Below, piece after piece: positions 1,538 to 17,313 of a stretch of 40,320 nucleotides of DNA. The translations under genes and the position numbers were made by a program. The DNA comes from a virus. The stretch lies in UHGV virus genome UHGV-1432856, one strand, 5' to 3'. Under the pieces are notes generated by a model. That model saw nothing but the letters and a program-made list of their open reading frames with translations, was not told where the DNA came from and did no database searches. Within the stretch, counting starts at the first letter, position 1; every line of letters starts with the position of its first letter.

Positions 1538-2209
1538 TCAACGACCAATCACCACAACCTGACCACCATCTCCTTCATCTGCCGTGCTGATCTCCTGCGA
1601 AATCACCCGTGACCCCACGCGCATTTCACCGTACAGAACCGGCAGAACATTGCCCTGGGCAACCATGTTATCCAGTGAGGAGAAATAGGTGTTCTGCTTA
1701 CCGTTATCCGTTGTCTGTGTGCGGGGAGTTCTGGCTTTCGGTGCCAGCATCTGAGCCACACCGCCGAGCACCATACTGGCACCGAGAGAAAACAGAATGC
1801 CGGTCATACCACCGGCCCCAATGGCTGTCCCCCATGCTGCAAGGGTGGCTCCGGCGGTAAAGAATGATCCGGCAATGGCGGCTGCCCCCAGGACAATCTG
1901 GAATACGCCACCTGACTTGGCCCCGGCGACTCTGGGAACGATATGAATCACAGCGCCGTCAGGCAGATCCTCATGTAACTGCGCCGTTAATCCGGACGTG
2001 CTGACATCCTGCCCGGCAATACGTACCTGATACCAGCCGTCGCTCAGTTTCTGACGAAACGCAGGGAGCTGTGTGGCCAGCGCCCGGATGGCTTCGGCCC
2101 CCGTTTTCACACGAAGGTCGATGCGGCGGCCAAATCGTTGTAAATCCCCGTAAAGGCAGATGCGCGCCATGCCCGGTGACGCCAGAGGGAGTGTGTGCGT
2201 CGCTGCCAT
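1538..2209 (-). CDS. I: tail assembly protein I
   Basis: 223 aa, MAATHTLPLASPGMARICLYGDLQRFGRR... matches lambda gpI; glycine-rich hydrophobic C-terminal half; about 60 nt gap to J as in lambda. Confidence 0.9.
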   Translation of the reverse strand: MAATHTLPLASPGMARICLYGDLQRFGRRIDLRVKTGAEAIRALATQLPAFRQKLSDGWYQVRIAGQDVSTSGLTAQLHEDLPDGAVIHIVPRVAGAKSGGVFQIVLGAAAIAGSFFTAGATLAAWGTAIGAGGMTGILFSLGASMVLGGVAQMLAPKARTPRTQTTDNGKQNTYFSSLDNMVAQGNVLPVLYGEMRVGSRVISQEISTADEGDGGQVVVIGR

Positions 2210-2850
2210 TTGTCGGTGTACCTCTCTCGTTTGCTCAGTTGTTCAGGAATATGGTGCAGCAGCTCGCCGTCGCCGCAGTAAATTGCGGCGTGATTCGGCA
2301 CCGATGAACCAAAACAGCACAGCAGCACATCGCCCGGCTGTGCCGCTGACAACGGCACCTGATACAGCCCCGTCGCCTCCAGATTATCCAGATAGAGATT
2401 CTGGCCGTTACGCCACCAGTCATCCTCACGATGAAAGTCCGGCATCCCAATCCCCGCCAGATGATAAGCATCCCGGAACAGTGTGTAACAGTCCGTCACA
2501 CCGTGCCCAAAGCGCCGCCCGGTGAGATGCGGCACACAGCGGAACTTATGAATCGTCCCCCGGCAGACCAGCCACCACGGCAAATCACTCTGCACCTGCA
2601 GCCGCCGGTCGGCCTCACTCAGCCAGGGCAGACCACCGGGGTGGCTGTGGACCAGCGCCACAATCTCACCCTGCATCTCTGCCCGCAGCCAGTCCTCCGG
2701 CGACATCCGGAAATACGCCTCCGGCTCACCGGAGATATTCACGCAGGGAAAATATCTTTCCCCTTCCGGCGTTCTCACCACGAAGCCGCACGACTCCGCT
2801 GGCGCACATCGCCGGGCGTGCGCCAGAATCGCTGATTCTGTCTCTGTCAT
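2107..2850 (-). CDS. K: tail assembly protein K (MPN/JAB plus NlpC/P60 peptidase-like)
   Basis: HSHPGG (JAB-like) and DCYTLF (NlpC/P60 Cys) motifs; 103-nt overlap with I as in lambda. Canonical lambda annotation starts at the internal Met (about 2706, 199 aa); the longer ORF from 2850 is reported here. Confidence 0.8.
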   Translation of the reverse strand: MTETESAILAHARRCAPAESCGFVVRTPEGERYFPCVNISGEPEAYFRMSPEDWLRAEMQGEIVALVHSHPGGLPWLSEADRRLQVQSDLPWWLVCRGTIHKFRCVPHLTGRRFGHGVTDCYTLFRDAYHLAGIGMPDFHREDDWWRNGQNLYLDNLEATGLYQVPLSAAQPGDVLLCCFGSSVPNHAAIYCGDGELLHHIPEQLSKRERYTDKWQRRTHSLWRHRAWRASAFTGIYNDLAAASTFV

Positions 2851-2855
2851 GGGAT

Positions 2856-3554
2856 TTACTGCGAAAGTTTGTTAATGGAAAGGAAGCCGCCAAAGTTGCC
2901 GACGTTATTGCGAAACTTACAGCCACTCAGGCATTTGCTGCATTTATCCTTCGTGATATCGGACGTCGGCTGGTCATATTCATCCGCGACAGCCGGACCA
3001 TGATAACCGCACTCATCACCGCGATAGGTCCAGGTGCAGGTGTTGGCCAGCATGATGCGCCCCGGAAAAACAGCACCATCCGTTTCCGTCGGTGTGGAGA
3101 GCACAAAGGAGGCACTGACCGCACTCAGTTCGCTGCACTGCTCGATGCGCCAGCGGCTGATCACCTCCTGCTCCGGATCGGCGTCGCTGTTTCCGTTGAC
3201 GAAGTTCACCGCATCCAGAAAACGGGCGTAAACCTTACGCCTGACCACCGTTCCGCCGACCAGACTCTGCAGGTCTTCCGCCATCCCGGTGACCATGCCG
3301 TGCAGGTTAGAGACCGTCAGTGTCGGACGGGCAGCACTGCCCTTACCGTTCAGTTCAAATCCCGTCCCCTGAATGGGGTATGCCTGATACTGCCGCCCCT
3401 GCCAGGTGACCGGCTCACCTTTTTCGTTCTGCTCATTACAGAAAAAATAACGTTCTCCACCAACCTCTGTCAGATCGATTTCCCAGAGCACCACGCAGGC
3501 AGACTGCTCCGCACGGGTGCATTCATTCAGTGTTTCCTGCCGGATATCCTGCAT
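2856..3554 (-). CDS. L: minor tail protein L
   Basis: 232 aa, MQDIRQETLNECTRAEQSA...KCSKCLSGCKFRNNVGNFGGFLSINKLSQ matches lambda gpL as recalled, including the C-terminal Cys cluster. Confidence 0.9.
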   Translation of the reverse strand: MQDIRQETLNECTRAEQSACVVLWEIDLTEVGGERYFFCNEQNEKGEPVTWQGRQYQAYPIQGTGFELNGKGSAARPTLTVSNLHGMVTGMAEDLQSLVGGTVVRRKVYARFLDAVNFVNGNSDADPEQEVISRWRIEQCSELSAVSASFVLSTPTETDGAVFPGRIMLANTCTWTYRGDECGYHGPAVADEYDQPTSDITKDKCSKCLSGCKFRNNVGNFGGFLSINKLSQ

Positions 3555-3883
3555 CAGTTCACCACCTGTTCAAACTCTGCGCTGAACTCAACACGTAACA
3601 TACTGACCCGCGACGACCATTTTGCGCAGGTCACCTTTATCTGCCTGTAACCATAAGGCGGCGTCCACAGAAAGCCCTTCCAGCCCCCGTGCTCAGCCAG
3701 AAACGACTCCAGCGCTGTTGCCTCCTCGCGGGAGACAGAAAGCGTCACGCTGTACGTTTTCAGGTTGGCATTCAGCCCGGCAGGCGCTCGCTGGGAATAG
3801 CCATCACCAAAGCGCACCTTTCTTACAGAAGGGGCCGAAGCCACATCCATACCGGGTTTCACTTTCCAGCGGAAGGTTTTCAT
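3554..3883 (-). CDS. M: minor tail protein M
   Basis: 109 aa, MKTFRWKVKPGMDVASAPSVRKVRFGDGYSQRAPAGLNANLKTYSVTLS... matches lambda gpM; start overlaps H stop. Confidence 0.9.
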   Translation of the reverse strand: MKTFRWKVKPGMDVASAPSVRKVRFGDGYSQRAPAGLNANLKTYSVTLSVSREEATALESFLAEHGGWKGFLWTPPYGYRQIKVTCAKWSSRVSMLRVEFSAEFEQVVN

Positions 3884-6441
3884 CGTCCACCTCCGGAGAA
3901 CAGGCCACCATCACGCATCTGTGTCTGAATTTCATCACGGGCACCCTTGCGGGCCATGTCATACACCGCCTTCAGAGCAGCCGGACCTATCTGCCCGTTC
4001 GTGCCGTCGTTGTTAATCACCACATGGTTATTCTGCTCAAACGTCCCGGACGCCTGCGACCGGCTGTCAGCCAGACTGCCCGGTGTACCGACATAACCAC
4101 CGGTGGCATAGCCGCGCATCAGCCGGTAGAGATTCCCCACGCCAATCCGGCTGGTTGCCTCCTTCGTGAAGACAAATTCACCACGGTGAACAATCCCCGC
4201 TGGCTCATATTTGCCGCCGGTTCCTGTGAATCCTCCGGTTGCAAAATGGAATTTCGCCGCAGCGGCCTGAATGGCTGTACCGCCTGACGCGGATGCGCCG
4301 CCACCAACAGCCCCGCCAATGGCGCTGCCGATACTCCCGACAATCCCCACCATTGCCTGCTTAAGCAGAATTTCTGTCATCATGGACAGCACGGAACGGG
4401 TGAAGCTGCGCCAGTTCTGCTCACTGCCGGTCAGCATCGCTGCCATATTCTGTGCAATACCATCAAAGGTCTGCGTGGCTGCACTTTTTACCTGCGACAT
4501 ACTGTCCGTGGCGCTCTCTTCCCACTCACTCCAGCCGGACTTCAGGCCTGCCATCCAGCTCCCGCGAAGCTGGTCTTCAGCCGCCCAAGTCTTTTTCTGC
4601 TCTGACATGACGTTATTCAGCGCCAGCGGATTATCGCCATACTGTTCCTTCAGGCGCTGTTCCGTGGCTTCCCGTTCTGCCTGCCGGTCAGTCAGCCCCC
4701 GGCTTTTCGCATCAATGGCGGCCCGTTTTGCCCGTTGCTGCTGTGCGAATTTATCCGCCTGCTGCGCCAGCGCGTTCAGGCGCTCCTGATACGTAACCTT
4801 GTCGCCAAGTGCAGCCAGCTGGCGTTTGTACTCCAGCGTCTCATCTTTATGCGCCAGCAGGGATTTCTCCTGTGCAGACAGCTGGCGACGTTGCGCCGCC
4901 TCCTCCAGTACCGCGAACTGACTCTCCGCCTTCCACAAATCCCGGCGCTGCTGGCTGATTTTCTCATTTGCTCCGGCATGCTTCTCCAGCGTCCGGAGTT
5001 CTGCCTGAAGCGTCAGCAGGGCAGCATGAGCACTGTCTTCCTGACGATCGCCCGCAGACACCTTCACGCCGGACTGTTTCGGCTTTTTCAGCGTCGCTTC
5101 ATAATCCTTTTTCGCCGCCGCCATCAGCGTGTTGTAATCCGCCTGCAGGATTTTCCCGTCTTTCAGTGCCTTGTTCAGTTCTTCCTGACGGGCGGTATAT
5201 TTCTCCAGCGGCGTCTGCAGCCGTTCGTAAGCCTTCTGCGCCTCTTCGGTATATTTCAGCCGTGACGCTTCGGTATCGCTCTGCTGCTGCGCATTTTTGT
5301 CCTGTTGAGTCTGCTGCTCAGCCTTCTTTCGGGCGGCTTCAAGCGCAAGACGGGCCTTTTCACGATCATCCCAGTAACGCGCCCGCGCTTCATCGTTAAC
5401 AAAATAATCATCCTTGCGCAGATTCCAGATGTCGTCTGCTTTCTTAAACGCAGCCTCTGCCTTAATCAGCATCTCCTGCGCGGTATCAGGACGACCAATA
5501 TCCAGCACCGCATCCCACATGGATTTGAAGGCCCGCGCTGTCCTGTCTGCCCAGGTCTCCAGCGTGCCCATGTTCTCTTTCAGGCGGCGGGTCTGGTCAT
5601 CAAACCCTTTCGTTGCGGCCTCGTTCGCCGCCTGCAATGCCCCGGCTTCATCGCCGGAACGCTGCAACTGAGCAACATACGCAATCTGCTCCGCCGTCAC
5701 GTTATGGAACTGGCGTGCCATCGCTGTCAGCCCTGACGTCGGGTCTGTGGTCAGCTTCCCGAAGGCTTCAGCGACCTTGTCCACCTCCACGCCGGATGCA
5801 GAAGAGAAACGCGCCACACTCTGGCTGATGGACGCAATCTGAGCCTCACCGCTTACCCCCGCCTTAACCAGTGCACTGAGTGACTCGCTGGTCTGGTTAA
5901 ACGTCAGCCCTGCCGCCTGCCCGGCTCTGGACAGGACCAGCATACGATCTGCCGTCAGACCCGACTGATTACCGGAAAGGACCAGCGTTTTGTTGAAATC
6001 GGACAGGGTTGAGTCACCCTGATACCAGGCATACGCCAGCGCACCGGTCGCCACCGCCAGCGAGGTGGCCCCGACCATCGGCAGGGTGATCGCACCGGCA
6101 AGCCCCCGGAACATGGGGATCATCCCGCCGAAGGAGTCCTTAACCTGACCACCCTGTTGCAGCAGGATCAGCCACGGGCTTTGCCCGCCTGCAAGCTGCG
6201 TGGCCACGTCGGTGAACTGTGCAGGCAGCATACGCATGGCGGCTTTATACTGCCCGACGGAAATCCCCGCTTTCTGTGCAGCCAGCGCCTGTCGGCTCAG
6301 CGACTTTTCAACGACTGCCGCTGTTTTTTTCGCATCAGTTTCCGTGCCGGAAAAATGACGCCTGACTCTGGCCATCTGCTCGTCAAATCTGGCCGCATCC
6401 AGACTTAAATCAACGACCAGATCGCCTACCGGTTCAGCCAT
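3880..6441 (-). CDS. H: tail tape measure protein H
   Basis: 853 aa, the same length as lambda gpH; coiled-coil-rich centre and glycine-rich hydrophobic C-terminal segment; 8-nt overlap with the upstream T frame as in lambda. Confidence 0.95.
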   Translation of the reverse strand: MAEPVGDLVVDLSLDAARFDEQMARVRRHFSGTETDAKKTAAVVEKSLSRQALAAQKAGISVGQYKAAMRMLPAQFTDVATQLAGGQSPWLILLQQGGQVKDSFGGMIPMFRGLAGAITLPMVGATSLAVATGALAYAWYQGDSTLSDFNKTLVLSGNQSGLTADRMLVLSRAGQAAGLTFNQTSESLSALVKAGVSGEAQIASISQSVARFSSASGVEVDKVAEAFGKLTTDPTSGLTAMARQFHNVTAEQIAYVAQLQRSGDEAGALQAANEAATKGFDDQTRRLKENMGTLETWADRTARAFKSMWDAVLDIGRPDTAQEMLIKAEAAFKKADDIWNLRKDDYFVNDEARARYWDDREKARLALEAARKKAEQQTQQDKNAQQQSDTEASRLKYTEEAQKAYERLQTPLEKYTARQEELNKALKDGKILQADYNTLMAAAKKDYEATLKKPKQSGVKVSAGDRQEDSAHAALLTLQAELRTLEKHAGANEKISQQRRDLWKAESQFAVLEEAAQRRQLSAQEKSLLAHKDETLEYKRQLAALGDKVTYQERLNALAQQADKFAQQQRAKRAAIDAKSRGLTDRQAEREATEQRLKEQYGDNPLALNNVMSEQKKTWAAEDQLRGSWMAGLKSGWSEWEESATDSMSQVKSAATQTFDGIAQNMAAMLTGSEQNWRSFTRSVLSMMTEILLKQAMVGIVGSIGSAIGGAVGGGASASGGTAIQAAAAKFHFATGGFTGTGGKYEPAGIVHRGEFVFTKEATSRIGVGNLYRLMRGYATGGYVGTPGSLADSRSQASGTFEQNNHVVINNDGTNGQIGPAALKAVYDMARKGARDEIQTQMRDGGLFSGGGR

Positions 6442-6670
6442 ACCGGACTCCTCCTGCGATCCCTTCTGATACTGTCATCAGCATTACGTCATCCTCCGTC
6501 ATGTCCGCCACATCCGGGGAAGCGGGGATAACTTCTTTCCCATCCGGGCCAAAACGAACGCCTCCGGCAAGCCCTGCTGCTTTCTGCATCAGCACATCAT
6601 CTTCAGGCTCTTCGTCAGCCTCGCGCCGGTTCAGCAGACTGAAATCCAGCGGATGCATATCCGGATCGCT
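6434..6670 (-). pseudogene. T: 3' fragment of the T segment of the G-T tail assembly chaperone; 5' part and gene G missing
   Basis: Frame ends exactly 8 nt inside the H start, as lambda T does; the frame stays open only to 6721, and composition turns AT-rich above about 6670; where G, V and U should follow there are Mu-like genes instead. Confidence 0.55.
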
Positions 6671-6680
6671 GAAAAACAGG

Positions 6681-6814
<134 letters not shown>

Positions 6815-6842
6815 AGAACTCGCGCCAGCCTGATTGCAGATA

Positions 6843-7232
6843 TTACTCTTTTTTCTCCGTATCTGCATCGGGTTCATCAGCAAATAGCTTGCCCTGCATC
6901 CGATCCAGTTCTTCTTTTCTTACCCGCTTAACCACGCTGTAGACCCACTGAAGCGAAACACCAAATTTGCGGGCCAGTTCGTGGTGGTTGCGTCCGTTAA
7001 ACTCCCTGAAGATTTCCCGGTCGCGCTGACTGACCTTCCATACCATGCCCATCGGGAAATAAACGTTTTGCCCGCCCCAGACCTGCATCATTCGGTTCGC
7101 GACGGCCTGACCAATCTGGTCGGCAACTTCGGGCTCAATATCAATAATCTCGCGAACGGTCTCAGAGGTATGCTGTGCCAGTTCCACCAGGAGTTCCGGC
7201 CCCTTACTTCGAAACTGATTCAGGTCGCTCAT
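6843..7232 (-). CDS. mor: Mor/C-family late transcription activator
   Basis: 129 aa (same length as Mu Mor); C-terminal HTH region FNGRNHHELARKFGVSLQWVYSVVKR resembles the Mor/C family; follows GemA as in Mu. Confidence 0.75.
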   Translation of the reverse strand: MSDLNQFRSKGPELLVELAQHTSETVREIIDIEPEVADQIGQAVANRMMQVWGGQNVYFPMGMVWKVSQRDREIFREFNGRNHHELARKFGVSLQWVYSVVKRVRKEELDRMQGKLFADEPDADTEKKE

Positions 7233-7653
7233 GTTTGACTCCCGCAGCTCTGCGCTGCCACTTCTTCAGTTTCTCAATAACACTGCTTGCCTGTTCAGTA
7301 CTGAGCCAGCGCAGGGCGCTGATGCCCGTTTCCCGCTTGATCCACCTCGCTAATGCATTTTCTGAACGGTCACGAACAATGCCGGCAGCAGCCATTTCAA
7401 GCCATAGCGCACGAATTTTCCTGGACTGCGGATGGTTATCCAGCGGTAAACCGGAGCTGGCTTTTCTGGCTGGTTTAACGCGAAAGCCTTTCTTTTTCAT
7501 GGATTCCAGCACGCAGTTTAGTTGTGTGGTATCCATTCCTTTGGTTGAGGCTTTACCGGTCAGCCCCTGTAACATCTGGCGGTAGGTGTCTTCATCCATA
7601 CCCAGTTCATTACGGGCAATATGGATAAGCTGTATCAGGCGTTTTTTCTGCAT
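7204..7653 (-). CDS. gemA: GemA-like protein (Mu gp16 family, DUF1018-like)
   Basis: N-terminal LIQLIHIARNELGMDEDTYRQML typical of Mu gp16/GemA; lies immediately upstream of the mor-like gene. Confidence 0.7.
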   Translation of the reverse strand: MQKKRLIQLIHIARNELGMDEDTYRQMLQGLTGKASTKGMDTTQLNCVLESMKKKGFRVKPARKASSGLPLDNHPQSRKIRALWLEMAAAGIVRDRSENALARWIKRETGISALRWLSTEQASSVIEKLKKWQRRAAGVKHERPESVSK

Positions 7654-7654
7654 A

Positions 7655-7861
7655 TCATCTCCTTTTTTTCAGTCTGTCGGCAACAATGTCGGTTGCAGCT
7701 GGCAGGGTGACTGGCCAGAACAACATGACGGCGGTCATGTACAGGATGTAATGCGCGGTGTCGTAGTGCCTGCCATAGCCCAGGGAACGATGAAGTCTTG
7801 CGCTGCATGATCCTGCGTACATATACCAGAAAAGAAAACAGACAATGGTTTCAGTAGTCAT
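7655..7861 (-). CDS. small hydrophobic protein (68 aa)
   Basis: ATG at 7859-7861 preceded by GGAGG at 7 nt spacing; hydrophobic segments; the longer track ORF 7655-8017 overlaps the next gene out of frame, so the shorter start is used. Confidence 0.45.
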   Translation of the reverse strand: MTTETIVCFLFWYMYAGSCSARLHRSLGYGRHYDTAHYILYMTAVMLFWPVTLPAATDIVADRLKKRR

Positions 7862-8081
7862 TCTGAATACCTCCCCATTCGATATGAATATTACGGGCAG
7901 CAATGACAGGGTCGTTATTCCACCATGCACCTGACATGTATTTTTCAACCTGTTCGCGTCCGGCAATAACACCAATTGTGATCCCCGGCCTGACGTTCTT
8001 AAAAAAGGCGCGGGCAAAAAGGTATCTGGCAGATATTCGGCAGGCTTTTAATTTCCGGCTGTTACCTGATAGCGTAATCAT
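7851..8081 (-). CDS. hypothetical early protein (76 aa)
   Basis: ATGA start/stop overlap with the upstream gene at 8078-8081, suggesting translational coupling in the early operon. Confidence 0.45.
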   Translation of the reverse strand: MITLSGNSRKLKACRISARYLFARAFFKNVRPGITIGVIAGREQVEKYMSGAWWNNDPVIAARNIHIEWGGIQNDY

Positions 8082-8761
8082 CTGGCCTCCAGTTTCTGTT
8101 GTTCCTGCCCACTGACCGGGCGGTGCAGTCTGACGTTCTGCCCTTCACGAAACCCCGCATAGCGCGAGGCGTCGCCATTGCGGCTTCTTCCCGGTTTACG
8201 CGCCCTGGTGGTTTGCGTTTGCGGGTATTTATGTTCCAGCCACTGTTGCATCAGTTCACGCTCATCATCGGTCAGGGCAAAGGACTGTATTTCACTGATA
8301 ACGGCCAGTACCCAGCCTTCAGCAAACTGGTTTCCACGGCTGGTACGGGTGGCGTTTTTTATTCTTTTGTTCTGTGCGCTGATATACTGCTGACGCGCCT
8401 TTTTCAGTTGGCGGACCAGCACTTCCCAGGTGTATGCAGCCAGTGCCGCTCGTTCCCGGTTACCGTAGAACCCCACAGACGGATGCGTGCCGGGGTGAAT
8501 GATGGAGTTAACACCAAATGCCTCGCGGATGATGTTCATCAGGCCCAGCATGTAGCGCGGTGGACGGAGACTGCCTGTCGGCCAGTAATGACTGATGGTT
8601 TCATCAATATCACTCATAGCAATGTCGGAATGTGTGATGCCGTGAACATCCATCAGTTTACGGGCTCGGCGCAGTGCCAGAGCGGCCTCGTGCGGGTTGC
8701 CGGATGCGGCCAGCGCCAGCAACTTTTTCAGTTTCTCAATGTGTTTATTCTGGTCTGTCAT
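8078..8761 (-). CDS. hypothetical early protein (about 227 aa; DUF2786-like N-terminus)
   Basis: Start taken at the Met (8759-8761) that forms an ATGA overlap with the upstream gene; KLKKLLALAASGNPHEAALALRRARKLM N-terminal motif; the track ORF extends to 8797. Confidence 0.5.
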   Translation of the reverse strand: MTDQNKHIEKLKKLLALAASGNPHEAALALRRARKLMDVHGITHSDIAMSDIDETISHYWPTGSLRPPRYMLGLMNIIREAFGVNSIIHPGTHPSVGFYGNRERAALAAYTWEVLVRQLKKARQQYISAQNKRIKNATRTSRGNQFAEGWVLAVISEIQSFALTDDERELMQQWLEHKYPQTQTTRARKPGRSRNGDASRYAGFREGQNVRLHRPVSGQEQQKLEAR

Positions 8762-8973
8762 TGTTCTGTATCTCCGGTATTTTTCTGCCGTTTCCATGCC
8801 CGGACAGCGTCGGACAGCTCTTTCAGGCTGTATGCTGCTTTAAGCTTTTCCCATAACCACTGTGTTGTTATGTGCATCAGCAGGGCAGCCAGGGCTGCCC
8901 CCGCACTGAGGCATGTCGCCAGGCCAGTAAGAATCAGTGTCCATGCGGTGATTTCCCTGAGTATGTCAGCCAT
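8758..8973 (-). CDS. small membrane protein (71 aa)
   Basis: Hydrophobic core WTLILTGLATCLSAGAALAALLM; GGGAGG ribosome-binding site upstream of the start. Confidence 0.45.
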   Translation of the reverse strand: MADILREITAWTLILTGLATCLSAGAALAALLMHITTQWLWEKLKAAYSLKELSDAVRAWKRQKNTGDTEQ

Positions 8974-8987
8974 TGAATGCCTCCCGG

Positions 8988-9284
8988 TTACTCGTTCGTG
9001 TAAATCACGCCCAGTCGTGCAGCCAGACGTTCCAGTTTTTTCTGTTTGTGGAAGTCAATCAGCCGGTCCATCCCCTGAAGGCGCAATTGCTCTGTCATGA
9101 TTTCCACGTCTGCCAGCTCTGCCGCGAGGTCACTTTCGCTGCCCTGTCCGTTCAGATTGCGGGCAGCACTGGCCGCCAGTTCAGCGGCCTCTTCTGTCAG
9201 TTTCAGGGCCTGTGCGTCCGGCCCGAAACGCTGCAGGGCCAGACGGTAGAGGGCGGTGCGGGTGAGTATGGTGTTCCGTGTCAT
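8988..9284 (-). CDS. small all-alpha protein, possibly MazG-like NTP pyrophosphohydrolase fold
   Basis: 98 aa with TEEAAELAA (EExxE-like) and ELADVEIMTEQL acidic motifs; GAGGG RBS; assignment tentative. Confidence 0.4.
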   Translation of the reverse strand: MTRNTILTRTALYRLALQRFGPDAQALKLTEEAAELAASAARNLNGQGSESDLAAELADVEIMTEQLRLQGMDRLIDFHKQKKLERLAARLGVIYTNE

Positions 9285-9293
9285 GCCGCGCCC

Positions 9294-9566
9294 TCAGTGC
9301 TTCCGGCTGACGGTGATGTGCAGGCCGCCTTCTGCAGTGGTTTCCATCCGGTACGGCACCTCATGCTCTGCCGTGTGGGTGAGTGTGTTCACCAGTACCT
9401 GCAGGGCAGCCGCCTTTCCGTTGGTCGCCACAATGGCCTGAGCGGCCATACTGATTAGTGCCGTCAGGACGTGCTTCACATCGGTGAGGTTGCGGCATTC
9501 ACACTCGTTGACATAGTGTTCAACAAGGGTTCGGGTGCGCTGTCGTGCTTCCTGTGGGGTAATCAT
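9294..9566 (-). CDS. hypothetical early protein (90 aa)
   Basis: ATGA overlap with the upstream gene at 9563-9566; no recognisable motif. Confidence 0.45.
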   Translation of the reverse strand: MITPQEARQRTRTLVEHYVNECECRNLTDVKHVLTALISMAAQAIVATNGKAAALQVLVNTLTHTAEHEVPYRMETTAEGGLHITVSRKH

Positions 9567-9757
9567 TGCGCGTCCTCCCTGTCAGGGCGGGAGAATTCCA
9601 TGACGGGCACGTCCGCCGAAAAATGCTGGCTGCAGTACGGGCAGACCAGGGTGACGCGTACCGCAGGGATGTGGTATTTACCGGACATCACGGCGATGGC
9701 GCTGTGAAAACGCAGGGCTGTTATATCCCTCTCGCACTGAATACATTTAAATATCAT
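9563..9757 (-). CDS. small zinc-ribbon-like protein (64 aa)
   Basis: Two CxxC pairs (CIQCER ... CPYCSQ); AGGAG RBS about 10 nt upstream of ATG. Confidence 0.5.
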   Translation of the reverse strand: MIFKCIQCERDITALRFHSAIAVMSGKYHIPAVRVTLVCPYCSQHFSADVPVMEFSRPDREDAQ

Positions 9758-9854
9758 AATTTAATTCTCCTCTGTTTCCGGCGTGCAGAAGCCCACGGCG
9801 CTGACGCTGGAATAAAAAAGAAAATGTTTTTATTAAATAATTAACGTGGTGTGT

Positions 9855-10385
9855 TTACTGCACATCCTGCTCAAAAGGAATTATTGAAAAATCCTCAATG
9901 TCGCTTTTAATGGAAATACCGGGAATATTTTTCACGGCCTCTTTTTCATTCAGGATAGCGTCTTTATTTATTTCCTCTTTTACACGAATAAAGCGCTCAA
10001 GCCCCAGACGTCTCAGTAATTCAATAACATTATCCGCCCCACGGATACTGACTGATGGCGGACGGTTTCGCCACTGCACCTCGCCGGTGGTGAGGTTAGC
10101 GAACTTCACCTTCCCGTTGCCGGTCAGTTCATCACGGTGTGCCTCACACCATGTCTGAATACCGGACTGCAGTTCGGCCATGCGTTTTTTCAGGCTCTCG
10201 GTGAGCGGGGCATAACGTGCGGTGATATCGCCAATGGCGTCATTCATTTCTGTTTCAGCCCTGACCAGTTCACGTTGTGCGTCACCGAGCAGTCTGATGC
10301 CCTCAATGACCTCTTCGCGTGTCCCCGGTACCCAGAGTGCCGCTGCGGACTTGATACGTTTTGCCCCTTTTGTACTTTTTGCCAT
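9855..10385 (-). CDS. gam: Gam-like host-nuclease inhibitor protein
   Basis: 176 aa; KRIKSAAA...ETEMNDAI...VRPPSVSIRG...GIEDFSIIPFEQ closely matches Mu Gam as recalled. Confidence 0.9.
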   Translation of the reverse strand: MAKSTKGAKRIKSAAALWVPGTREEVIEGIRLLGDAQRELVRAETEMNDAIGDITARYAPLTESLKKRMAELQSGIQTWCEAHRDELTGNGKVKFANLTTGEVQWRNRPPSVSIRGADNVIELLRRLGLERFIRVKEEINKDAILNEKEAVKNIPGISIKSDIEDFSIIPFEQDVQ

Positions 10386-10412
10386 ATTTTATGATTTCTC
10401 CGGTTGTGCTGA

Positions 10413-10682
10413 TTACCACAAAGATTCCGGCCACACGACGCGACAGCCGTGCAGTTCGAAAACGCCCTGACGGAAATGACCCCTGTGGTCATGACCGGTA
10501 TACAGATAACTGGCTTTCCCCTGTTCAAGCATGTGTATGCAATGCGCACTCCGGGAAACTCGGATGACAGGTTTATGGCCCCTGATGGTGATGCTCTGTA
10601 TATCCGTATTCGTCGCCTTAAGTGCCATAATGGCTGACTGCACTTTGTTAATCTGCTGGCTGATAACTGTGGTGGATTTCAT
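10413..10682 (-). CDS. hypothetical early protein (89 aa)
   Basis: Starts 2 nt after the B stop with AAAGGGG RBS; occupies the B-to-gam position where Mu carries small accessory early genes. Confidence 0.45.
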   Translation of the reverse strand: MKSTTVISQQINKVQSAIMALKATNTDIQSITIRGHKPVIRVSRSAHCIHMLEQGKASYLYTGHDHRGHFRQGVFELHGCRVVWPESLW

Positions 10683-10684
10683 TA

Positions 10685-11851
10685 TTAAACCCCTTTGACA
10701 ACGTCAGCATTGACCTGTGGAACCCCGATTTCAGCGGCCAGATTCATGGCGGCTATCACCAGGTTACTGACGGCCAGCGGATACAGCAGGCTGACCATAT
10801 TTTTACGATGACTTCCCGGATTGCTCAGGCGGGCACGTATGGCATCCACTGCGCTGGCGTCCATAATGTCCGTCAGTTGTTTACCGGCCCGTTGCAGTTT
10901 GAACGTCAGAAATTCTTCAAGGTTATTGTCCAGAGGCAGAAGTTCGACCACCTCACAGCGCTGAACGACTTCACGGACTTCCATATTGCGTTCAGACAGT
11001 TTTGTCGCCAGTTCCGGCTGGCCAATCAGCACGATGGACAGCAGTTTTTTGAAACCGGACTCCAGCTCAAAAAAGCGTTTGAGGTGTTTCAGTGTCGGAA
11101 TGGGCAGACTGTGGGCCTCCTCAATCACCAGAACGTGGCTGAACCCCGCCTGGCTGCTGTCTTTCAGGACGCGATGCAACTGGCGAAAGCGGGCGTCCTG
11201 ACTGCGTCTGATGCTTTCCAGTGGTGCGATGGTACTGATAATGGCTTCGGCAATCGCTGCTGCCTTCAGGGTTTTCCCTTTCACATCGTTGTCTTCCATA
11301 GCGATGATGTATGGCTCGATAACAATTACCGGCGCATTCTCGCGGTTGATACGTTCAGTCAGGTCGCGGCGCAGCGTGGATTTACCCGCACCGGACTCAC
11401 CGATGACGGCCATAAACCCACCATGACGGGCTGTCTGGTACAACGCCTCACGCACGTAGCGAATGTCCGGGGTGGTGAACACATCATCAGAACCCTGCAT
11501 GGCTTCGTCGGCGAACGGGTCACGGAAAAGACCAAACGCTTTTTTGGTTGCTGGAAATAACACCTGTTTTTTGAGTAACATATTCTCTTCCTCACTGAGG
11601 CTCGTTTTATCTGTGGTACCCGCTGTACGGGGCGTGGCCGCGCCCTGTACAGCATCAAAACTCTTCGTTGTATCAATCCCCTGACTTTCCAGCCAGGACG
11701 CAAGACGCCGGCGCACTTCTCCGGGGCTGGTGCGGGGCCACGCGTTATGATTCACAATCTGGGCCAGCGTGGCCTCAGAAACATCGACAGCTCTCGCCAC
11801 CACCGCCTGTGGAATACGGGCCTCTTTCAGTTGCTGCTTCAGTACCAGCAT
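10685..11851 (-). CDS. B: transposition ATPase B (AAA+ P-loop, N-terminal HTH)
   Basis: Walker A GESGAGKS, Walker B-like VLVIEEAH; immediately downstream of the transposase; start taken at the Met preceded by GAGGAGGG, 10 nt after the A stop. Confidence 0.8.
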   Translation of the reverse strand: MLVLKQQLKEARIPQAVVARAVDVSEATLAQIVNHNAWPRTSPGEVRRRLASWLESQGIDTTKSFDAVQGAATPRTAGTTDKTSLSEEENMLLKKQVLFPATKKAFGLFRDPFADEAMQGSDDVFTTPDIRYVREALYQTARHGGFMAVIGESGAGKSTLRRDLTERINRENAPVIVIEPYIIAMEDNDVKGKTLKAAAIAEAIISTIAPLESIRRSQDARFRQLHRVLKDSSQAGFSHVLVIEEAHSLPIPTLKHLKRFFELESGFKKLLSIVLIGQPELATKLSERNMEVREVVQRCEVVELLPLDNNLEEFLTFKLQRAGKQLTDIMDASAVDAIRARLSNPGSHRKNMVSLLYPLAVSNLVIAAMNLAAEIGVPQVNADVVKGV

Positions 11852-11861
11852 GTTTCCCTCC

Positions 11862-13631
11862 TCAGTTGCCGTTAACAATGCTGATAACACTGCTGCTGGC
11901 CGGTGTGGTCAGCGTGGCCATGACTTCATCCAGTGCGGCTTCCGGTACGCCGTCCGGGTACTGTGCCGTTAACTGGCGGTAATGTTCCGGCGTCCAGGTA
12001 AGGCCGTCGGCGCTGAACTTATCGCGCAGGGCTTTCGCGGCCTCCACATGAGTCATGGGACGTTGTTCAGTGCGCGGCCCGCGTACGTCAGAGGCCTGAC
12101 CACGCTTCGGCATATAGGCCGGAAGTGTGGTGTCGTCGATATGTTTATACGGGTCAAGCCGCCCGCCGAACGGCAGCGCCTTCGCCTTGCGTGCGGCGGC
12201 TGCATCTGCGGCGTTGTCTGTACCGGTAACCAGCGCTTCGGTTTCTTTTGCCGCCATCTGTGCCGGGGTTTCCGGCAGGGCTTTGTAACTTTCGCCAAAT
12301 ACCGCCGCGCCTTCAGCAAAGCCAAACTCGTTCTTTCTGACCTCTTCGACCAGGAAGAACGTCTCGTGGCCGTCCTCACCGGTCAGAACCACCTGTGCCA
12401 CATCGCTGCGCCATGGGTTACGGGTAATCATCAGTTTTTCACCAACCAGTACGCCCGGTACCGTTGATACGTCAAATTCAGTGCCCCGGAACGAGACACG
12501 AAGTTTTGGCGTGACTTTGCGGAGTTCTGGTGCCGCCACAGCCAGTTCATGACATACCTCAACGGAAGGCGCTTTTTTCAGCTGCTCAGCAGTAATCTTC
12601 AGCCAGATATCCGTGCGGGTTTTACCGTGGCGGCTGTGAACAGCCGTGGCGTTAAAGTGGCTGCGCCATTTCGCGGCCAGCGCGTTGAGTTCTTCCAGAC
12701 TGTGAACCGGCCGGAACTTCAGACCCGGCTCCAGCTTGCGTTCGATAATGTCTCGCGCCTTTTCCACCTGTCCGGTGGCGCGGGCGTTATGCGGCTTGTG
12801 CGCTATCAGGTCGATGCCCAGTGAGCGGCACATGTTTTTCGTCATACCCGCGGTGTTTGCCGAGCCGGGGTCGAGATAGAGTATTTTTGGCACGCCGTGC
12901 AGCACGTCTGCGCCGCCACGCTCCTGCATGGCGTTGATAAGCACAGAACACAGGTTCTCACCTGATTCCGCGCCCGTCACATACTCAACGTAAATCCAGC
13001 CGCTGGCATGGTCGGTAATCTCGTAACTCCACACGCGGTCACTGGCGATACGGGCAAGGTTAGCGGGCTTGTTCTTGTAGAACTTCGCGCTGTCCATCAC
13101 CTGCAGCCCTTTATGTCCATTGCTCAGGTAGTAAAGCGTGCAGAGTGAGGCGTCAATCTGCCAGACATGATTGGGGTGCAGACTGGCCACTTCGGTATGC
13201 GGTGCAGGAGCATCCAGTTGTTCCGGGTGCAGGCCATAGTTACGCAGAGCACGGCTGATGGCATCTTCAGACAACGGGAAAAACTCACCGGTGGTTTCAT
13301 CTGTTCTGCCTGCGGTGATAAAGCCGTTAGCCCGCAGGGTTTCCACTGCATCTGCGATGGAATAGAGGCGCTTACCGTTCTTGCGGGTGGCCTCACGCAG
13401 TGTGGCAGATATCAGCGCGGCTTCGTCGCGGGTCAGGGCGCTGCGTCCGGCATCAGCGCGTTTTTTGCGTTTATCAGTCACAGAGACCTCCTTCAGCCTG
13501 CGCAGCAGAGTGGCGCGGGACATGCCAAGTTCAGCACAGGCAGCGTCGTATATTGCACCGCGTTTACCATGCCCCGCGTCACGTGCCGCGCGGGCGACAT
13601 AAACCAGTCGTTCAGTCAGGGCAGCATTCAT
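11862..13631 (-). CDS. A: DDE transposase (phage A-type, integrase-core fold)
   Basis: 589 aa; candidate catalytic triad HVWQIDAS / YLDPGSAN / GQVEKA (D, D, E); paired with the B ATPase. Confidence 0.85.
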   Translation of the reverse strand: MNAALTERLVYVARAARDAGHGKRGAIYDAACAELGMSRATLLRRLKEVSVTDKRKKRADAGRSALTRDEAALISATLREATRKNGKRLYSIADAVETLRANGFITAGRTDETTGEFFPLSEDAISRALRNYGLHPEQLDAPAPHTEVASLHPNHVWQIDASLCTLYYLSNGHKGLQVMDSAKFYKNKPANLARIASDRVWSYEITDHASGWIYVEYVTGAESGENLCSVLINAMQERGGADVLHGVPKILYLDPGSANTAGMTKNMCRSLGIDLIAHKPHNARATGQVEKARDIIERKLEPGLKFRPVHSLEELNALAAKWRSHFNATAVHSRHGKTRTDIWLKITAEQLKKAPSVEVCHELAVAAPELRKVTPKLRVSFRGTEFDVSTVPGVLVGEKLMITRNPWRSDVAQVVLTGEDGHETFFLVEEVRKNEFGFAEGAAVFGESYKALPETPAQMAAKETEALVTGTDNAADAAAARKAKALPFGGRLDPYKHIDDTTLPAYMPKRGQASDVRGPRTEQRPMTHVEAAKALRDKFSADGLTWTPEHYRQLTAQYPDGVPEAALDEVMATLTTPASSSVISIVNGN

Positions 13632-13634
13632 TGG

Positions 13635-14549
13635 TTATGCCTCCAGCCCGTTAATCTGTGGCGTCGGCTCAGTCAGCCATGAAGGCGCGGCATTGCCTGT
13701 TGGCTCATCCGGCAGGTCAAATGTGGAGCGCAGGCTACGCGCTGTGCTTTCCAGTTGACAGACCAGGCCTGCCATGAAGTCTCTGGGGGTATCAATCATG
13801 TTTTCAGCACAATATGCGCACAGCGTCTCAAAAGCGCTGGACAGTCGAACGGCGATAGCAGATTCCGCCTCAACCGCTAATGCTGTCACTTCCGCCCGCA
13901 GCTTCTTAACCTCTTCATCAGGCTCAGGCGGCTGAATACGGGATTTCTTCTCCAGTCTGGTGGAGAGTGAGTCTATTTTTTCATTTTTGTCAGCGAGTAC
14001 GCGCTGTTGTGCTGCGTTGGTTTCGCGCGCTTCGCGCAGGGCCTGACGCAATTCACGTACTGACATGCGATCAACGTCGTCAAGCGTCAGGCCGGCAACT
14101 GTGCCGCCGTCGGCCAATTCATCAAGTTCTTCATTATCCAGAACCATCAGGTCGTACAGTTTGGCTTTCCCCAAAACGCTCAACGTTGAGCGTTTTGTTG
14201 GCTCATCACCTTCTCCCAAAAACTTCATACTGGCTTGCATCATGCGGCGAGCAACTTGTGGTGCAAGTCCGAGTTCATTTTCTAAAATGTTTGTAAAATC
14301 ACCGTGTGGCTCATTTTCTTTTAAGATGATCAGCCGCTTACCCGCTTCCAGCATAGATTCAGCACTCTGCGCCATATAAAAACGTGCTTCGTGAACAATG
14401 CGATCACGTTCATAAGGCAGTCCATCACCAAACTGCTGCATAATTTCCATGCGATGCTGTGTCATAGCGTTCAAATTGACATTGATGTTATCTGACAGCG
14501 GAACCTCAACATTCAGTTCAGTGTTAACGGGTGATTTGGTGCGTCCCAT
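13635..14549 (-). CDS. acidic coiled-coil protein (DUF3102-like) of unknown function
   Basis: 304 aa, tightly packed between the wHTH gene and the transposase; domain assignment from memory only. Confidence 0.55.
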   Translation of the reverse strand: MGRTKSPVNTELNVEVPLSDNINVNLNAMTQHRMEIMQQFGDGLPYERDRIVHEARFYMAQSAESMLEAGKRLIILKENEPHGDFTNILENELGLAPQVARRMMQASMKFLGEGDEPTKRSTLSVLGKAKLYDLMVLDNEELDELADGGTVAGLTLDDVDRMSVRELRQALREARETNAAQQRVLADKNEKIDSLSTRLEKKSRIQPPEPDEEVKKLRAEVTALAVEAESAIAVRLSSAFETLCAYCAENMIDTPRDFMAGLVCQLESTARSLRSTFDLPDEPTGNAAPSWLTEPTPQINGLEA

Positions 14550-14559
14550 TGATTACTCC

Positions 14560-14868
14560 TTACAAACGACTACCTGAAATAACTCGTTGGTTGATTTCGT
14601 TAATACGATCCTGTGCACGCGCCATCTCGTGACTGTGAGCCATGGCGATCTGTAGTAACTGGATTCCCGGTGCGAAACGTCCGTTCTCTAATTTCATGGC
14701 CAGTCCCTCTTCAATAAGGGTATTAAGTGCTCGATTGATATTCGCCGGGGACTCCCCCAGGGCTGATGCCAGTTCACCGTTAGAAACACCGTTCAGAGCA
14801 TGACCGCGTAGAGCTTTGAGTACACGTAGGATGCGGGTCCCAGAACTGGAAATATTTACTTTACTCAT
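14560..14868 (-). CDS. winged-helix DNA-binding protein (IclR-N/MarR-like HTH)
   Basis: LRVLKALRGHALNGVSNGELASALGESPANINRALNTLIEEG HTH pattern; start taken at MSKVNISS (14866-14868); the track's longer start at 14931 would overlap the upstream gene. Confidence 0.5.
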   Translation of the reverse strand: MSKVNISSSGTRILRVLKALRGHALNGVSNGELASALGESPANINRALNTLIEEGLAMKLENGRFAPGIQLLQIAMAHSHEMARAQDRINEINQRVISGSRL

Positions 14869-14920
14869 GTCACATTTCCATTTTTGCAATATGTGATAAC
14901 CTGTTGCATATGTGGAAAAT

Positions 14921-15109
14921 TTATGCCGCATTTGACGTGGGTTTTAATCCCAGTTTTACGGCAATTTCATGGGCTTTGCCGTAACGAGCTTTGGTCTGTC
15001 CATTGAGAACACGATAGACCTCATTGCGGCTGTAGCCGTGTTCTTCGGCCCAGCGGGTAAACGTGATACCACGCTGACGGAAGAGATTTTTAACTTGTTC
15101 GGAAGTCAT
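14921..15109 (-). CDS. small HTH DNA-binding protein in the Cro/Ner position
   Basis: 62 aa, first gene of the leftward operon, divergent from the XRE repressor; AGGAG RBS; not clearly homologous to Mu Ner, assigned by position and HTH-like pattern. Confidence 0.55.
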   Translation of the reverse strand: MTSEQVKNLFRQRGITFTRWAEEHGYSRNEVYRVLNGQTKARYGKAHEIAVKLGLKPTSNAA

Positions 15110-15159
15110 TGTTGTCTCCTTTGTTGATGCAATGATGTTTGTTTTATATGTGATAGATT

Positions 15160-15179
15160 ATGAGAACTATTGTTCTCAT
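15160..15179. promoter_or_regulatory. putative operator: inverted repeat ATGAGAAC-TATT-GTTCTCAT
   Basis: Perfect 8-bp arms with 4-bp spacer, inside the 86-bp divergent region between the Cro/Ner-like and repressor genes. Confidence 0.45.
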
Positions 15180-15195
15180 TGTCAATGAGGTTTAT

Positions 15196-15621
15196 GTGAA
15201 TTTTGATTCTCTTTGCGCGTCGCGGTTCAAAGCTGAGCGTTCGCGGTTATCACTCAAGCAGGCTGAAGTAGCAGCCCTTTGTGGCGTTTCAAGAGAAATG
15301 TGGGGGAAATATGAACGAGGGGTTGCTGTTCCCGGAGGTGAGTTACTTGCAGCCTTTGCAAGAATTGGGGCCAATGTACAGTTCATTCTTACCGGGGAGT
15401 CATCAGGTATAACTTTATCACGTGATGAAATGGAGTTACTGCAGCACTACCGGCAGGCACCATTACAGGTCAAAGGTTCAGTTTTGTCGGCCTTGACTAC
15501 TGGCTCCTCCAGAGAACGGGCGGAACAGGTTATTCATGGAGATGTTCTGGGGAATGTTATCAAAGGTAACGTAACCATAGGAACAGGTGGAATAATGAAC
15601 AAAAATACCAAGAGAAGATGA
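15196..15621 (+). CDS. XRE-family HTH transcriptional regulator, probable prophage repressor
   Basis: HTH LSLKQAEVAALCGVSREMWGKYERG; start placed at GTG 15196 (GAGG at 5 nt spacing); the track ORF starts at ATG 15160 inside the palindrome; divergent from the early operon. Confidence 0.65.
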   Translation: MNFDSLCASRFKAERSRLSLKQAEVAALCGVSREMWGKYERGVAVPGGELLAAFARIGANVQFILTGESSGITLSRDEMELLQHYRQAPLQVKGSVLSALTTGSSRERAEQVIHGDVLGNVIKGNVTIGTGGIMNKNTKRR

Positions 15622-16604
15622 GTAAAGAGAAGCAAACAGTTAACGGGGATGTGGGTAACGTTGTCAGCGGTGATGTTACCATTCATAACTATTCTGCTGA
15701 CATACTTCCTTCGGCCCAGCAACCAATTTCGTTGCTGCAAAAACGCGATTTACACAGATTGATGGATGAATTGGTTGATCTGGGGGAAAGTAAGCGCGAG
15801 CTATGGATGACGATCCACACGAAACTTAATACCAAAACAGTTAATGAAATGACTGCGGCTGATTATCATGGTGCGGTTGAGATCCTTCAGAGATATGCAC
15901 AACAGATCCAGAATATGAAGGACTGTAATCTTCTGGTCAGCAAAATAATGGCGCTTACTGACCCTGGGTATCGTCTTGACCGTGACAGATACTGTCTGAA
16001 GCATTTCGGTACAACCCATCTTAAAGGCCTAGACAAAGAGCAGTTGCAGGCTGTGTTTGGTTATTTTGATGATCTGCTGAATATTCGTGATGAGAGTAAA
16101 ACTCTATCACCTCCATCGGAAAGCGGTGCAAAATCAGTCGCAACTGTACCAACCAGAAGCCGGAAGCCTCATGTAGTAGTGTTGGGGGGAGTGTTAGTTC
16201 TTGTAGCAATATTTTTCGTGGGAATGATTGTGTTCGCTGGTAAATGGGGAAATGCCAAAGCAGTAGCTTCTACTGAAACCAGCGTTTTTAACATTAAAAC
16301 CAACGATAAAATAATAGAAGATTCCATCCCCGCACTGCGCAGCATGTTTCCAGGGTTAAATAAGTACTCAGATGATTTCCATTCGGTTTCAAGCTACAAG
16401 CAAAAAACGGGCTGGCATACCCTTAAATTTACTGTATCAGCAAAGGCATCCGTCCCCGAAAATTATAGTGTTAAGGGCAAGGTTTGTTACATTAACATAA
16501 GCCCTGATGGTAGTTATGCTCGGGTTTTGACTGCTCCATGTCGTTCACTGCTACTTGATCAGCAAAGCACTCCTGACAGTAAATACCGTTTTATTCTTAA
16601 ATAG
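15618..16604 (+). CDS. single-pass membrane protein of unknown function, translationally coupled to the repressor
   Basis: 328 aa; ATGA overlap with the repressor stop; one TM helix (VVVLGGVLVLVAIFFVGMIVFA) between a roughly 185-aa N-terminal and 120-aa C-terminal domain; N-terminal GDV/GNV repeat; AT-rich. Confidence 0.6.
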   Translation: MSKEKQTVNGDVGNVVSGDVTIHNYSADILPSAQQPISLLQKRDLHRLMDELVDLGESKRELWMTIHTKLNTKTVNEMTAADYHGAVEILQRYAQQIQNMKDCNLLVSKIMALTDPGYRLDRDRYCLKHFGTTHLKGLDKEQLQAVFGYFDDLLNIRDESKTLSPPSESGAKSVATVPTRSRKPHVVVLGGVLVLVAIFFVGMIVFAGKWGNAKAVASTETSVFNIKTNDKIIEDSIPALRSMFPGLNKYSDDFHSVSSYKQKTGWHTLKFTVSAKASVPENYSVKGKVCYINISPDGSYARVLTAPCRSLLLDQQSTPDSKYRFILK

Positions 16605-16694
16605 AAAATAACAGCTGAATTACCATGGGATCAGAAAAAAGACAAAGGCGGCATCATGCTGCGTTCTGAAATTTTAATGTAAAAGGTGATGAAC

Positions 16695-17276: not shown

Positions 17277-17278
17277 TG

Positions 17279-17302
17279 CAGCCCTTCAGGGCTGTTTCTG
17301 TT
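17279..17302 (+). terminator. Rho-independent terminator ending the repressor-linked cassette
   Basis: CAGCCC-TTCA-GGGCTG hairpin followed by TTTCTGTT, 3 nt after the stop at 17276. Confidence 0.5.
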
Positions 17303-17313
17303 CAGGAGGTATC

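Follow-up and report, generated by a model that had tools for sequence, protein, structure and literature searches.

The window analysed here, 40,320 nucleotides (nt) of UHGV virus genome UHGV-1432856 read as one strand, contains seven small minus-strand genes of 64, 90, 98, 71, 227, 76 and 68 amino acids (aa) that occupy positions 9757-7655 and are flanked by gam and gemA. These genes, orf1 to orf7, probably make up the accessory semi-essential early (SEE) segment of a BcepMu-like Escherichia coli prophage, expressed from the early operon and conditioning the host. A first-pass annotation of the same DNA had compared the region with the early region of Mu-type phages. The comparison holds: the block lies in the SEE position, from MuB and gam to gemA and mor, as in Mu, B3 and BcepMu. 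The seven genes are as follows.

9757-9563, minus strand: orf1, 64 aa, predicted zinc-ribbon protein with C5-x2-C8 ... C39-x2-C42; backbone gene.
9566-9294, minus strand: orf2, 90 aa, function unassigned; lineage-specific insert in the interval between orf1 and orf3.
9284-8988, minus strand: orf3, 98 aa, predicted nucleoside triphosphate (NTP) pyrophosphohydrolase of the MazG superfamily (all-alpha); backbone gene.
8973-8758, minus strand: orf4, 71 aa, predicted single-pass membrane protein; insert confined to the E. coli lineage.
8761-8078, minus strand: orf5, 227 aa, basic protein with DUF2786 and DUF7168; backbone gene.
8081-7851, minus strand: orf6, 76 aa, basic protein with an isoelectric point (pI) of 10.1; mobile accessory insert.
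7861-7655, minus strand: orf7, 68 aa, probable hairpin protein with two transmembrane (TM) segments, directly upstream of gemA; backbone gene.

The length given for orf5 starts at the ATG overlapping the stop of orf4; the longest open reading frame (ORF) there has 239 aa. ATGA overlaps are present at the orf1/orf2, orf4/orf5 and orf5/orf6 junctions, and orf6 and orf7 overlap by 11 nt. The intergenic gaps are 9 nt between orf2 and orf3, 14 nt between orf3 and orf4, and 1 nt between orf7 and gemA. All seven starts have a GGAG/GAGG-type Shine-Dalgarno-like motif 5-14 nt upstream. The overlapping junctions suggest that the seven genes are translationally coupled. The first-pass annotation had described seven small coupled ORFs between gemA and gam, chained by ATGA overlaps or short gaps with ribosome-binding sites; its description is accurate to the base.

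Escherichia phage PhiKM, a member of Bcepmuvirus, matches the region with 98.6% identity. Of 5426 complete E. coli genomes, 640 carry the prophage, mostly in full length and with more than 95% identity, and the carriers include many sequence type 131 (ST131) and other clinical E. coli lineages. The gene order is that of BcepMu and B3, with the early operon leftward and the late genes rightward. The leftward early genes are a ner-like gene, a DUF3102 gene, a DDE transposase gene (A), an ExeA/MuB-like ATPase gene (B), the small genes, gemA and mor. The left end of the prophage is at window position 6681 (TGATTAG...) and has three different, unrelated flanks in three genomes, which argues that the element transposes. 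Judged by this identity and gene order, the element is a common BcepMu-like (Bcepmuvirus) transposable prophage of E. coli.

All early proteins were mapped on a comparison set of 24 loci from different Enterobacterales species, with GemA as the anchor. The recurrent order in the relatives is an 89-aa ORF, Gam or DUF3164, zinc ribbon, MazG-like, DUF2786/DUF7168, two-TM protein and gemA. By this mapping, the block is a four-gene backbone (zinc ribbon, MazG-like, DUF2786/DUF7168 and two-TM genes) with the inserts orf2, orf4 and orf6. Among the 24 related loci, orf2 is present in one, orf6 in three and orf4 in none. Most of the 640 E. coli carriers contain the inserts (orf4 in 533, orf2 in 613 and orf6 in 626), and one E. 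coli variant (L030) simply lacks orf4. Across 25 loci, the slot between B and gemA holds 33 ORF families. In the Photorhabdus relatives, only approximately 700 bp separate B from gemA and almost the whole block is absent. None of the seven genes is shared with BcepMu or Mu. Because related prophages lack most or all of the segment, it appears not to be needed for transposition itself, and on this comparison it is accessory and probably dispensable.

The block and its flanks differ in their divergence. A, B and mor have 92-95% protein identity to the relatives versus 38-73% for orf1, orf3, orf5 and orf7. Identity to the window is approximately 55% for orf1, 72% for orf3, 65% for orf5 and 40% for orf7. 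Against loci L007, L012 and L014, the synonymous divergence (dS) of A, B and mor is 0.38-0.73 (0.38-0.52 for L007 and L014), and that of the island genes is 0.96-2.7, with a nonsynonymous to synonymous ratio (dN/dS, omega) of 0.10-0.24 for orf1, orf3, orf5 and orf6. The high divergence of the island is more than fast protein evolution, because dS is raised while omega is low. Recombination has therefore replaced the block with that of a more distantly related element. By these estimates it is a mosaic module under purifying selection.

The seven ORFs are, on several lines of comparative evidence, real genes. Exactly these seven coding sequences are called by the NCBI PGAP (RefSeq) annotation in a 100%-identical E. 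coli chromosome, and every ORF has an end-to-end match to a PHROG family (E values of 1e-34 to 1e-77). The omega values of orf1, orf3, orf5 and orf6 were obtained against relatives with near-saturated synonymous sites. The divergence support for orf2 comes from homologues that are 52% identical (locus L026; not in the other 23 of the 24 loci) and 46% identical (phage Phi06_2974 B), and from one in the same slot in S. diarizonae that is 25% identical (pairwise E value of 2e-6). For orf7, a pattern of two hydrophobic segments is kept at approximately 40% identity. The least secure gene is orf4, whose sequence is invariant wherever it is found, so that it allows no divergence test. It is supported by a strong Shine-Dalgarno motif, a clear TM segment and an ATGA junction.

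A segment of this kind could also be a counter-defence island, as the first-pass annotation proposed, in which at least one of the seven proteins inhibits or evades bacterial immunity. This reading is rather unlikely. It is consistent with the mosaic structure of the segment, with its insertion and deletion variability among close relatives, and with its near absence from the Photorhabdus relatives, all indirect signs of an accessory, host-interaction role. The proteins are small and would be made early, as inhibitors typically are, and orf6 is also found among the accessory early genes of lambdoid and P22-like phages. The product of the neighbouring gam antagonises RecBCD, and in a Mu-like phage of Pseudomonas Gam and GemA interact with and license Gabija (PMC12407980). 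The selection data point the other way, as omega is purifying rather than diversifying in the backbone genes (0.10-0.24) and gives no sign of an arms race. The block is also more than 95% identical in approximately 620 E. coli genomes and is thus nearly invariant within the species. No Pfam anti-restriction or anti-CRISPR family, PADLOC model or informative PHROG is matched, in searches that included no dedicated anti-defence hidden Markov model library; NCBIfam and PADLOC gave no match for any island protein. The alternative occupants of the slot in the relatives include, by Pfam scan, no known anti-defence gene and none of known function. Finally, orf5 is conserved across distant transposable phages, and a role linked to lifestyle fits this conservation equally well.

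The accessory SEE segment would be transcribed as part of one long early operon. The features of this operon outside the seven genes are the following.

15185-15157, minus strand: candidate early promoter, TTGACA-17-CATAAT.
13631-11862, minus strand: transposase gene.
11890-10685, minus strand: MuB-like gene, followed by the 89-aa ORF, gam, orf1-7, gemA and mor.
10413-10682, minus strand: 89-aa ORF that separates the MuB-like gene from gam and opens the accessory segment; phrog_2041, 8e-34.
10385-9855, minus strand: gam, for a DNA-end binding protein like Mu Gam; it flanks the seven genes upstream and belongs to the same accessory segment; Pfam Phage_Mu_Gam, 1e-40.
7653-7204, minus strand: gemA, downstream flank; Pfam GemA, 8e-41.

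The candidate promoter is the sole 11/12 match to the sigma-70 consensus in 6600-15300. A consensus scan of the early region found no internal promoter or terminator above shuffled expectation, and an Rfam scan of 6000-16000 gave no match. The island is probably co-transcribed with the transposition genes from the promoter near 15185. The sole sizeable non-coding stretch downstream of B in the early operon is the AT-rich, 97-nt gap between gam and orf1 (9758-9854). The PhiKM annotation has a plus-strand ORF across this area that is probably spurious.

The 89-aa ORF product has a pI of 9.9 and is found in 17 of the 25 loci; the ORF falls outside the interval marked by the first-pass annotation. 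The gam protein is 62% identical to Mu Gam. Most close relatives, in which A and B are approximately 93% identical, carry a DUF3164 gene in the gam slot (Pfam, 3e-80; loci L006-L031, for example positions 4949-5560 of L007). Twenty loci have either gene, with DUF3164 in 14, Gam in six and both in none. Such mutual exclusion resembles a non-orthologous displacement, and it hints that the two proteins may be functionally analogous. The swap of DUF3164 for Gam could matter for sensitivity to Gabija, which is licensed by Gam in the Pseudomonas relative.

Within the block, the most testable lead is the pair of orf1 and orf3. The orf1 protein matches phrog_3401 (1e-40). Its two CxxC pairs, C5-x2-C8 and C39-x2-C42, are approximately 30 residues apart and are conserved in L007 (CTNC...CPHC), P0084 and P0094. 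By these pairs orf1 is a zinc ribbon; its Pfam zinc-finger matches are all sub-threshold, and it has no relative in the PDB. Homologues with approximately 55% identity lie directly upstream of the MazG-like gene in most related prophages, and others with 26-30% identity are present in Photorhabdus and Xenorhabdus.

The orf3 protein matches PHROG 2245, annotated as an NTP pyrophosphohydrolase (2.8e-34), and covers only positions 113-211 of its 218. It contains the motif E32-A-A-E35, 20 residues, E56-L-A-D59 (EExxE-x20-ExxD), which is of the acidic metal-binding type. Residues E31, E32, E56 and D59 are invariant in 17 close homologues. Among 59 distant homologues, E31 and D59 never vary, and conservation is at least 90% at E32, E35 and E56. 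No curated Pfam or NCBIfam threshold is reached by the protein itself, and its sole direct Pfam match, PRA-PH, is below the cut-off (E value of 0.047). The family profile recovers 10,697 cluster representatives (50% identity). In a sample of 58 homologues (E values of 1e-16 or lower), 20 match Pfam MazG (PF03819), MazG-like (PF12643) or PRA-PH (PF01503), and no other Pfam family recurs. A broadened profile finds the MazG-like PDB entry 5ie9 at an E value of 0.0066, as well as 2q73, 2q5z, 2gta and 1vmg. PDB sequence searches with orf1, orf2, orf3, orf5 and orf6, and with the close-homologue profiles of orf3 and orf5, found nothing meaningful. By this transitive profile evidence, orf3 is very probably a member of the MazG superfamily. 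It is the sole product with a biochemical assignment, that of a predicted nucleotide pyrophosphohydrolase. The first-pass annotation had named a zinc-ribbon protein and a possible MazG-like pyrophosphohydrolase; the two conserved CxxC pairs of orf1 bear out the former, and the transitive evidence bears out the latter for orf3 at the superfamily level.

In L007, the stop of the zinc-ribbon gene (5827) overlaps the start of the MazG gene (5824), and unrelated N-terminal cysteine clusters are fused, independently, to several remote MazG-like homologues. Together these arrangements are a weak hint that orf1 and orf3 form a functional pair. Zinc-ribbon-MazG fusions recorded in close relatives (P0084 and P0094) were considered and set aside; they are probably read-through artefacts, and L007 has two overlapping genes. 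The possibility that orf2 and orf3 are a split gene was also rejected, as the longer PHROG 2245 relatives carry C-terminal extensions or an upstream zinc ribbon and not orf2.

The sole mechanistic lead to counter-defence is this putative MazG-like enzyme, for which Atd1 is a precedent by analogy. The phage MazG-like protein Atd1 is reported to deplete (p)ppGpp and to blunt TIR-STING toxicity (bioRxiv 10.1101/2022.06.09.495361). In the corresponding version of the counter-defence island, orf3, with orf1, would act like Atd1 and degrade an alarmone or a signalling nucleotide of immunity, and orf2, orf4 and orf6 could inhibit particular E. coli defences. An orf1-orf3 two-part nucleotide hydrolase may then remove such a nucleotide during early Mu-type replication. 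That any block product is a new anti-defence factor, whether this hydrolase or an inhibitor among orf2, orf4 and orf6, is a tentative proposal. If true, the widespread DUF2786/DUF7168 family would gain its first functional context. A cyanophage MazG is reported not to hydrolyse (p)ppGpp (PMC6850273), and an alarmone role therefore cannot be assumed from family membership. The first-pass annotation had taken homology to known housekeeping phage proteins as a refutation of counter-defence; MazG, to whose superfamily orf3 is assigned, is an enzyme of the 'house-cleaning' type.

The orf5 protein contains DUF2786 at residues 8-44 (43.0 bits, cut-off 23.9) and DUF7168 at residues 46-189 (92.7 bits, cut-off 25.5). 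All 58 of its sampled homologues carry DUF2786 and/or DUF7168, and most carry both. The literature on DUF2786, DUF7168 and phrog_421 holds incidental mentions only and assigns no function to the family. The predicted structure of orf5 (mean predicted local distance difference test, pLDDT, 83; predicted template modelling score, pTM, 0.75) has an N-terminal helical hairpin and a beta-alpha-beta-beta-alpha core. A classification of orf5 as a KH-domain protein was rejected, as there is no GXXG loop and no significant Foldseek match. Homologues occur at the same position in B3 (ORF5), JBD24 (gp17), D3112-like phages and many Ralstonia transposable phages. The two domains are also found in non-transposable phages, namely Xanthomonas phage Mallos and 150-kb Vibrio phages.

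This distribution bears on a further alternative, in which the block is a replication or transposition helper. Here orf5 and orf1 would act on DNA or on the transition from transpososome to replisome and orf3 would clean the dNTP pool, in parallel to the 'arm' (amplified replication) and 'sot' phenotypes of Mu. Such a role is possible though doubtful. In B3-like, D3112-like, Ralstonia and enterobacterial transposable phages, the orf5 homologues follow A and B and precede gemA. The protein has a pI of 10.2, a strongly conserved basic motif (KRIKxxTxTSRGxxFAEGW) and a core with KH-like topology, which is of the single-strand nucleic-acid-binding kind. The genes are under purifying selection, and 'house-cleaning' is the canonical MazG role (PMC10014863). 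However, BcepMu, Mu and the relatives in Photorhabdus and Dickeya do without orf5, which rules out a strict requirement, and its occurrence in non-transposable phages also counts against this reading. The likeness to KH domains is weak, and the Pfam search gave no DNA-binding domain. For the backbone genes, and for orf5 above all, a helper role in replicative transposition is about as likely as counter-defence.

The remaining products are less informative. The orf2 protein matches phrog_3691 (4e-55) and has no Pfam or PDB match. The orf6 protein belongs to phrog_3681, with a dN/dS of 0.10-0.13. Its homologues, 66-76% identical, lie in the early-left accessory region of a P22-like Lederbergvirus and a lambdoid siphovirus, which indicates that orf6 moves between phage types. 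The family is limited to Enterobacterales, and all its members are annotated as 'hypothetical'. Pfam, PHROG and PDB searches found no informative relative of orf2 or orf6. The orf4 protein (phrog_3958), which among phage records is found in PhiKM only, has a TM segment at residues 12-36 with a Kyte-Doolittle value of 1.98 and is a clear candidate for a single-pass membrane protein. The orf7 protein (phrog_6436) has homologues with approximately 40% identity at the same position in most relatives. The order of hydrophobic segment, basic loop and hydrophobic segment is conserved, and the two aromatic-rich segments are kept in L007 at 40% identity. Its Kyte-Doolittle maximum of 1.52 is borderline, just under the usual cut-off of 1.6, and a two-TM hairpin is probable. 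Of the two small membrane proteins noted at first reading, orf4 is thus well founded and orf7 is only probable.

Small membrane proteins are typical exclusion factors. Some of the inserts, chiefly the membrane proteins orf4 and orf7, could accordingly be morons that benefit the lysogen through superinfection exclusion or an envelope change and have no lytic role, an improbable reading. The gene for orf4 is a discrete insertion-deletion unit, with its 533 of 640 carriers and no other species, and the prophage is very common in clinical E. coli, including ST131. The genes nonetheless lie inside the repressed early operon, on the same strand as their neighbours and translationally coupled to them, with no promoter-like site in front. 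Better candidates for lysogenic-conversion cargo are the low-GC genes beside the repressor (15.6-17.8 kb).

These low-GC genes occupy window positions 15618-17790, with a GC content of 0.43-0.49 compared with 0.55-0.59 elsewhere in the prophage, and adjoin a helix-turn-helix repressor gene (15160-15621). The interval contains plus-strand ORFs of 328 aa and 196 aa and a minus-strand ORF of 158 aa (RefSeq 'ABC transporter ATPase'), none with a significant Pfam or PADLOC match. It may be cargo expressed in lysogeny, such as exclusion or defence genes.

Under the preferred reading, the seven genes are the accessory SEE segment, and host-cell conditioning during early lytic growth is their most likely role. 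One long leftward early operon would be transcribed from the promoter near 15185 through the ner-like gene, DUF3102, the transposase, the MuB-like gene, the 89-aa ORF, gam, orf1-7, gemA and mor. Coupled translation would yield the products within minutes of induction or infection, alongside the transposition machinery. The MazG-like orf3 would hydrolyse a nucleotide, for which non-canonical (d)NTPs are one possibility and (p)ppGpp or another alarmone or signalling molecule a second, and may act with the zinc-ribbon orf1, its translationally coupled partner in relatives. The basic DUF2786/DUF7168 protein orf5 would bind nucleic acid or a host protein. The small membrane proteins would act at the envelope, for example in exclusion, division or the timing of lysis. 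Substrates, partners, co-transcription and any effect on host defence are inferred.

Several points weigh against this reading. Five of the seven products have no informative homologue, and host conditioning is therefore argued from position and analogy. The KH-like resemblance of orf5, as noted, is weak. The one-operon model is read from sequence scans, and a simple scan could have missed an internal signal in the AT-rich stretch that separates gam from orf1.

The setting of the prophage in this window is also informative. The prophage end at 6681 lies in a tail-assembly gene, just upstream of a lambda-type tape-measure gene on the minus strand (3880-6441; Pfam TMP_2, 2e-69, and Tape_meas_lam_C, 4e-21). 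The lambdoid prophage region (1538-6441) and the junction (6434-6700) indicate that the Mu-like prophage transposed into a lambdoid prophage and probably inactivated it. In strain C 237-04 the same prophage end adjoins a glycoside-hydrolase pseudogene, and in CFIAFB20190167 its neighbour is a cob(I)yrinic acid a,c-diamide adenosyltransferase pseudogene. A complete relative of the prophage is present as a 40.5-kb circular 'plasmid' record of E. coli JCH8249 (NZ_CP132021.1, locus L031), which has DUF3164 in place of gam and lacks orf2 and orf4. This record probably represents a phage genome, induced or transposing, that was closed into a circle during assembly, and not a plasmid.

The early accessory genes described here belong to a prophage in approximately 12% of complete E. 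coli genomes and would be expressed upon induction in a sizeable fraction of natural E. coli. Widespread families among them are the minimal MazG-like proteins, with more than 10,000 representatives, DUF2786/DUF7168 and the orf6 family, and a function found here would transfer widely. The block itself is what a Mu-type phage would be expected to have as its semi-essential region. It already carries annotation in hundreds of public genomes, and nothing about it is structurally or mechanistically surprising.

Among the closest known systems is the SEE region of Mu and other transposable phages, in the literature a long, poorly conserved stretch of small uncharacterised genes (PMC8705779; see also PMC4378225). 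The Mu SEE (kil to gp15, in the interval between B and gemA) has the same position in the early operon, after A and B, includes gam and ends at gemA-mor. It likewise consists of packed small genes that are poorly conserved, mostly annotated without function and not needed for transposition, and it also has small multi-cysteine zinc-ribbon-like ORFs (gp6 and gp13). Homology of the seven proteins to Mu SEE proteins was considered and rejected, as sequence comparison found none; only gam, gemA and mor are shared. Unlike in Mu, the early operon here runs opposite to the late genes, an arrangement it has in common with BcepMu and B3.

The early regions of BcepMu (gp03-gp07) and B3 (ORF3-ORF10) share the genome architecture, with homologous A, B, gemA and mor. 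B3 ORF5 is a DUF2786/DUF7168 homologue of orf5 with 34% identity. BcepMu instead has DUF3164, an HU-like protein and DUF2528, without gam, and neither phage has orf2, orf4 or orf6. The equivalent slot of BcepMu holds gp06, with the annotation pyrophosphatase, yet this protein has no detectable relation to orf3; orthology was rejected, as BLASTP gives no alignment and hhalign aligns only the ELAD motif (probability 0.2).

With the MazG-like all-alpha enzymes, orf3 shares the EExxE...ExxD motif and a single domain of approximately 95 aa, like YpjD (2gta) and SSO3215 (1vmg). Compared with the curated MazG families it falls below every threshold and is linked transitively to Pfam MazG, MazG-like and PRA-PH and to the PDB chains. 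Its likeness to Atd1, an anti-TIR-STING (p)ppGpp hydrolase, would run through the MazG-like family only.

The proven anti-defence genes of Pseudomonas Mu-like phages (anti-CRISPRs) lie in the head-gene region and not in the SEE, and no gene here is related to them. The same phages have small accessory ORFs of 34-100 codons in fixed early-arm slots that differ between near-identical genomes (PMC4378225). The lambdoid ea and nin accessory regions are a further parallel, and it is in a region of just this type that P22-like and lambdoid phages carry their homologues of orf6.

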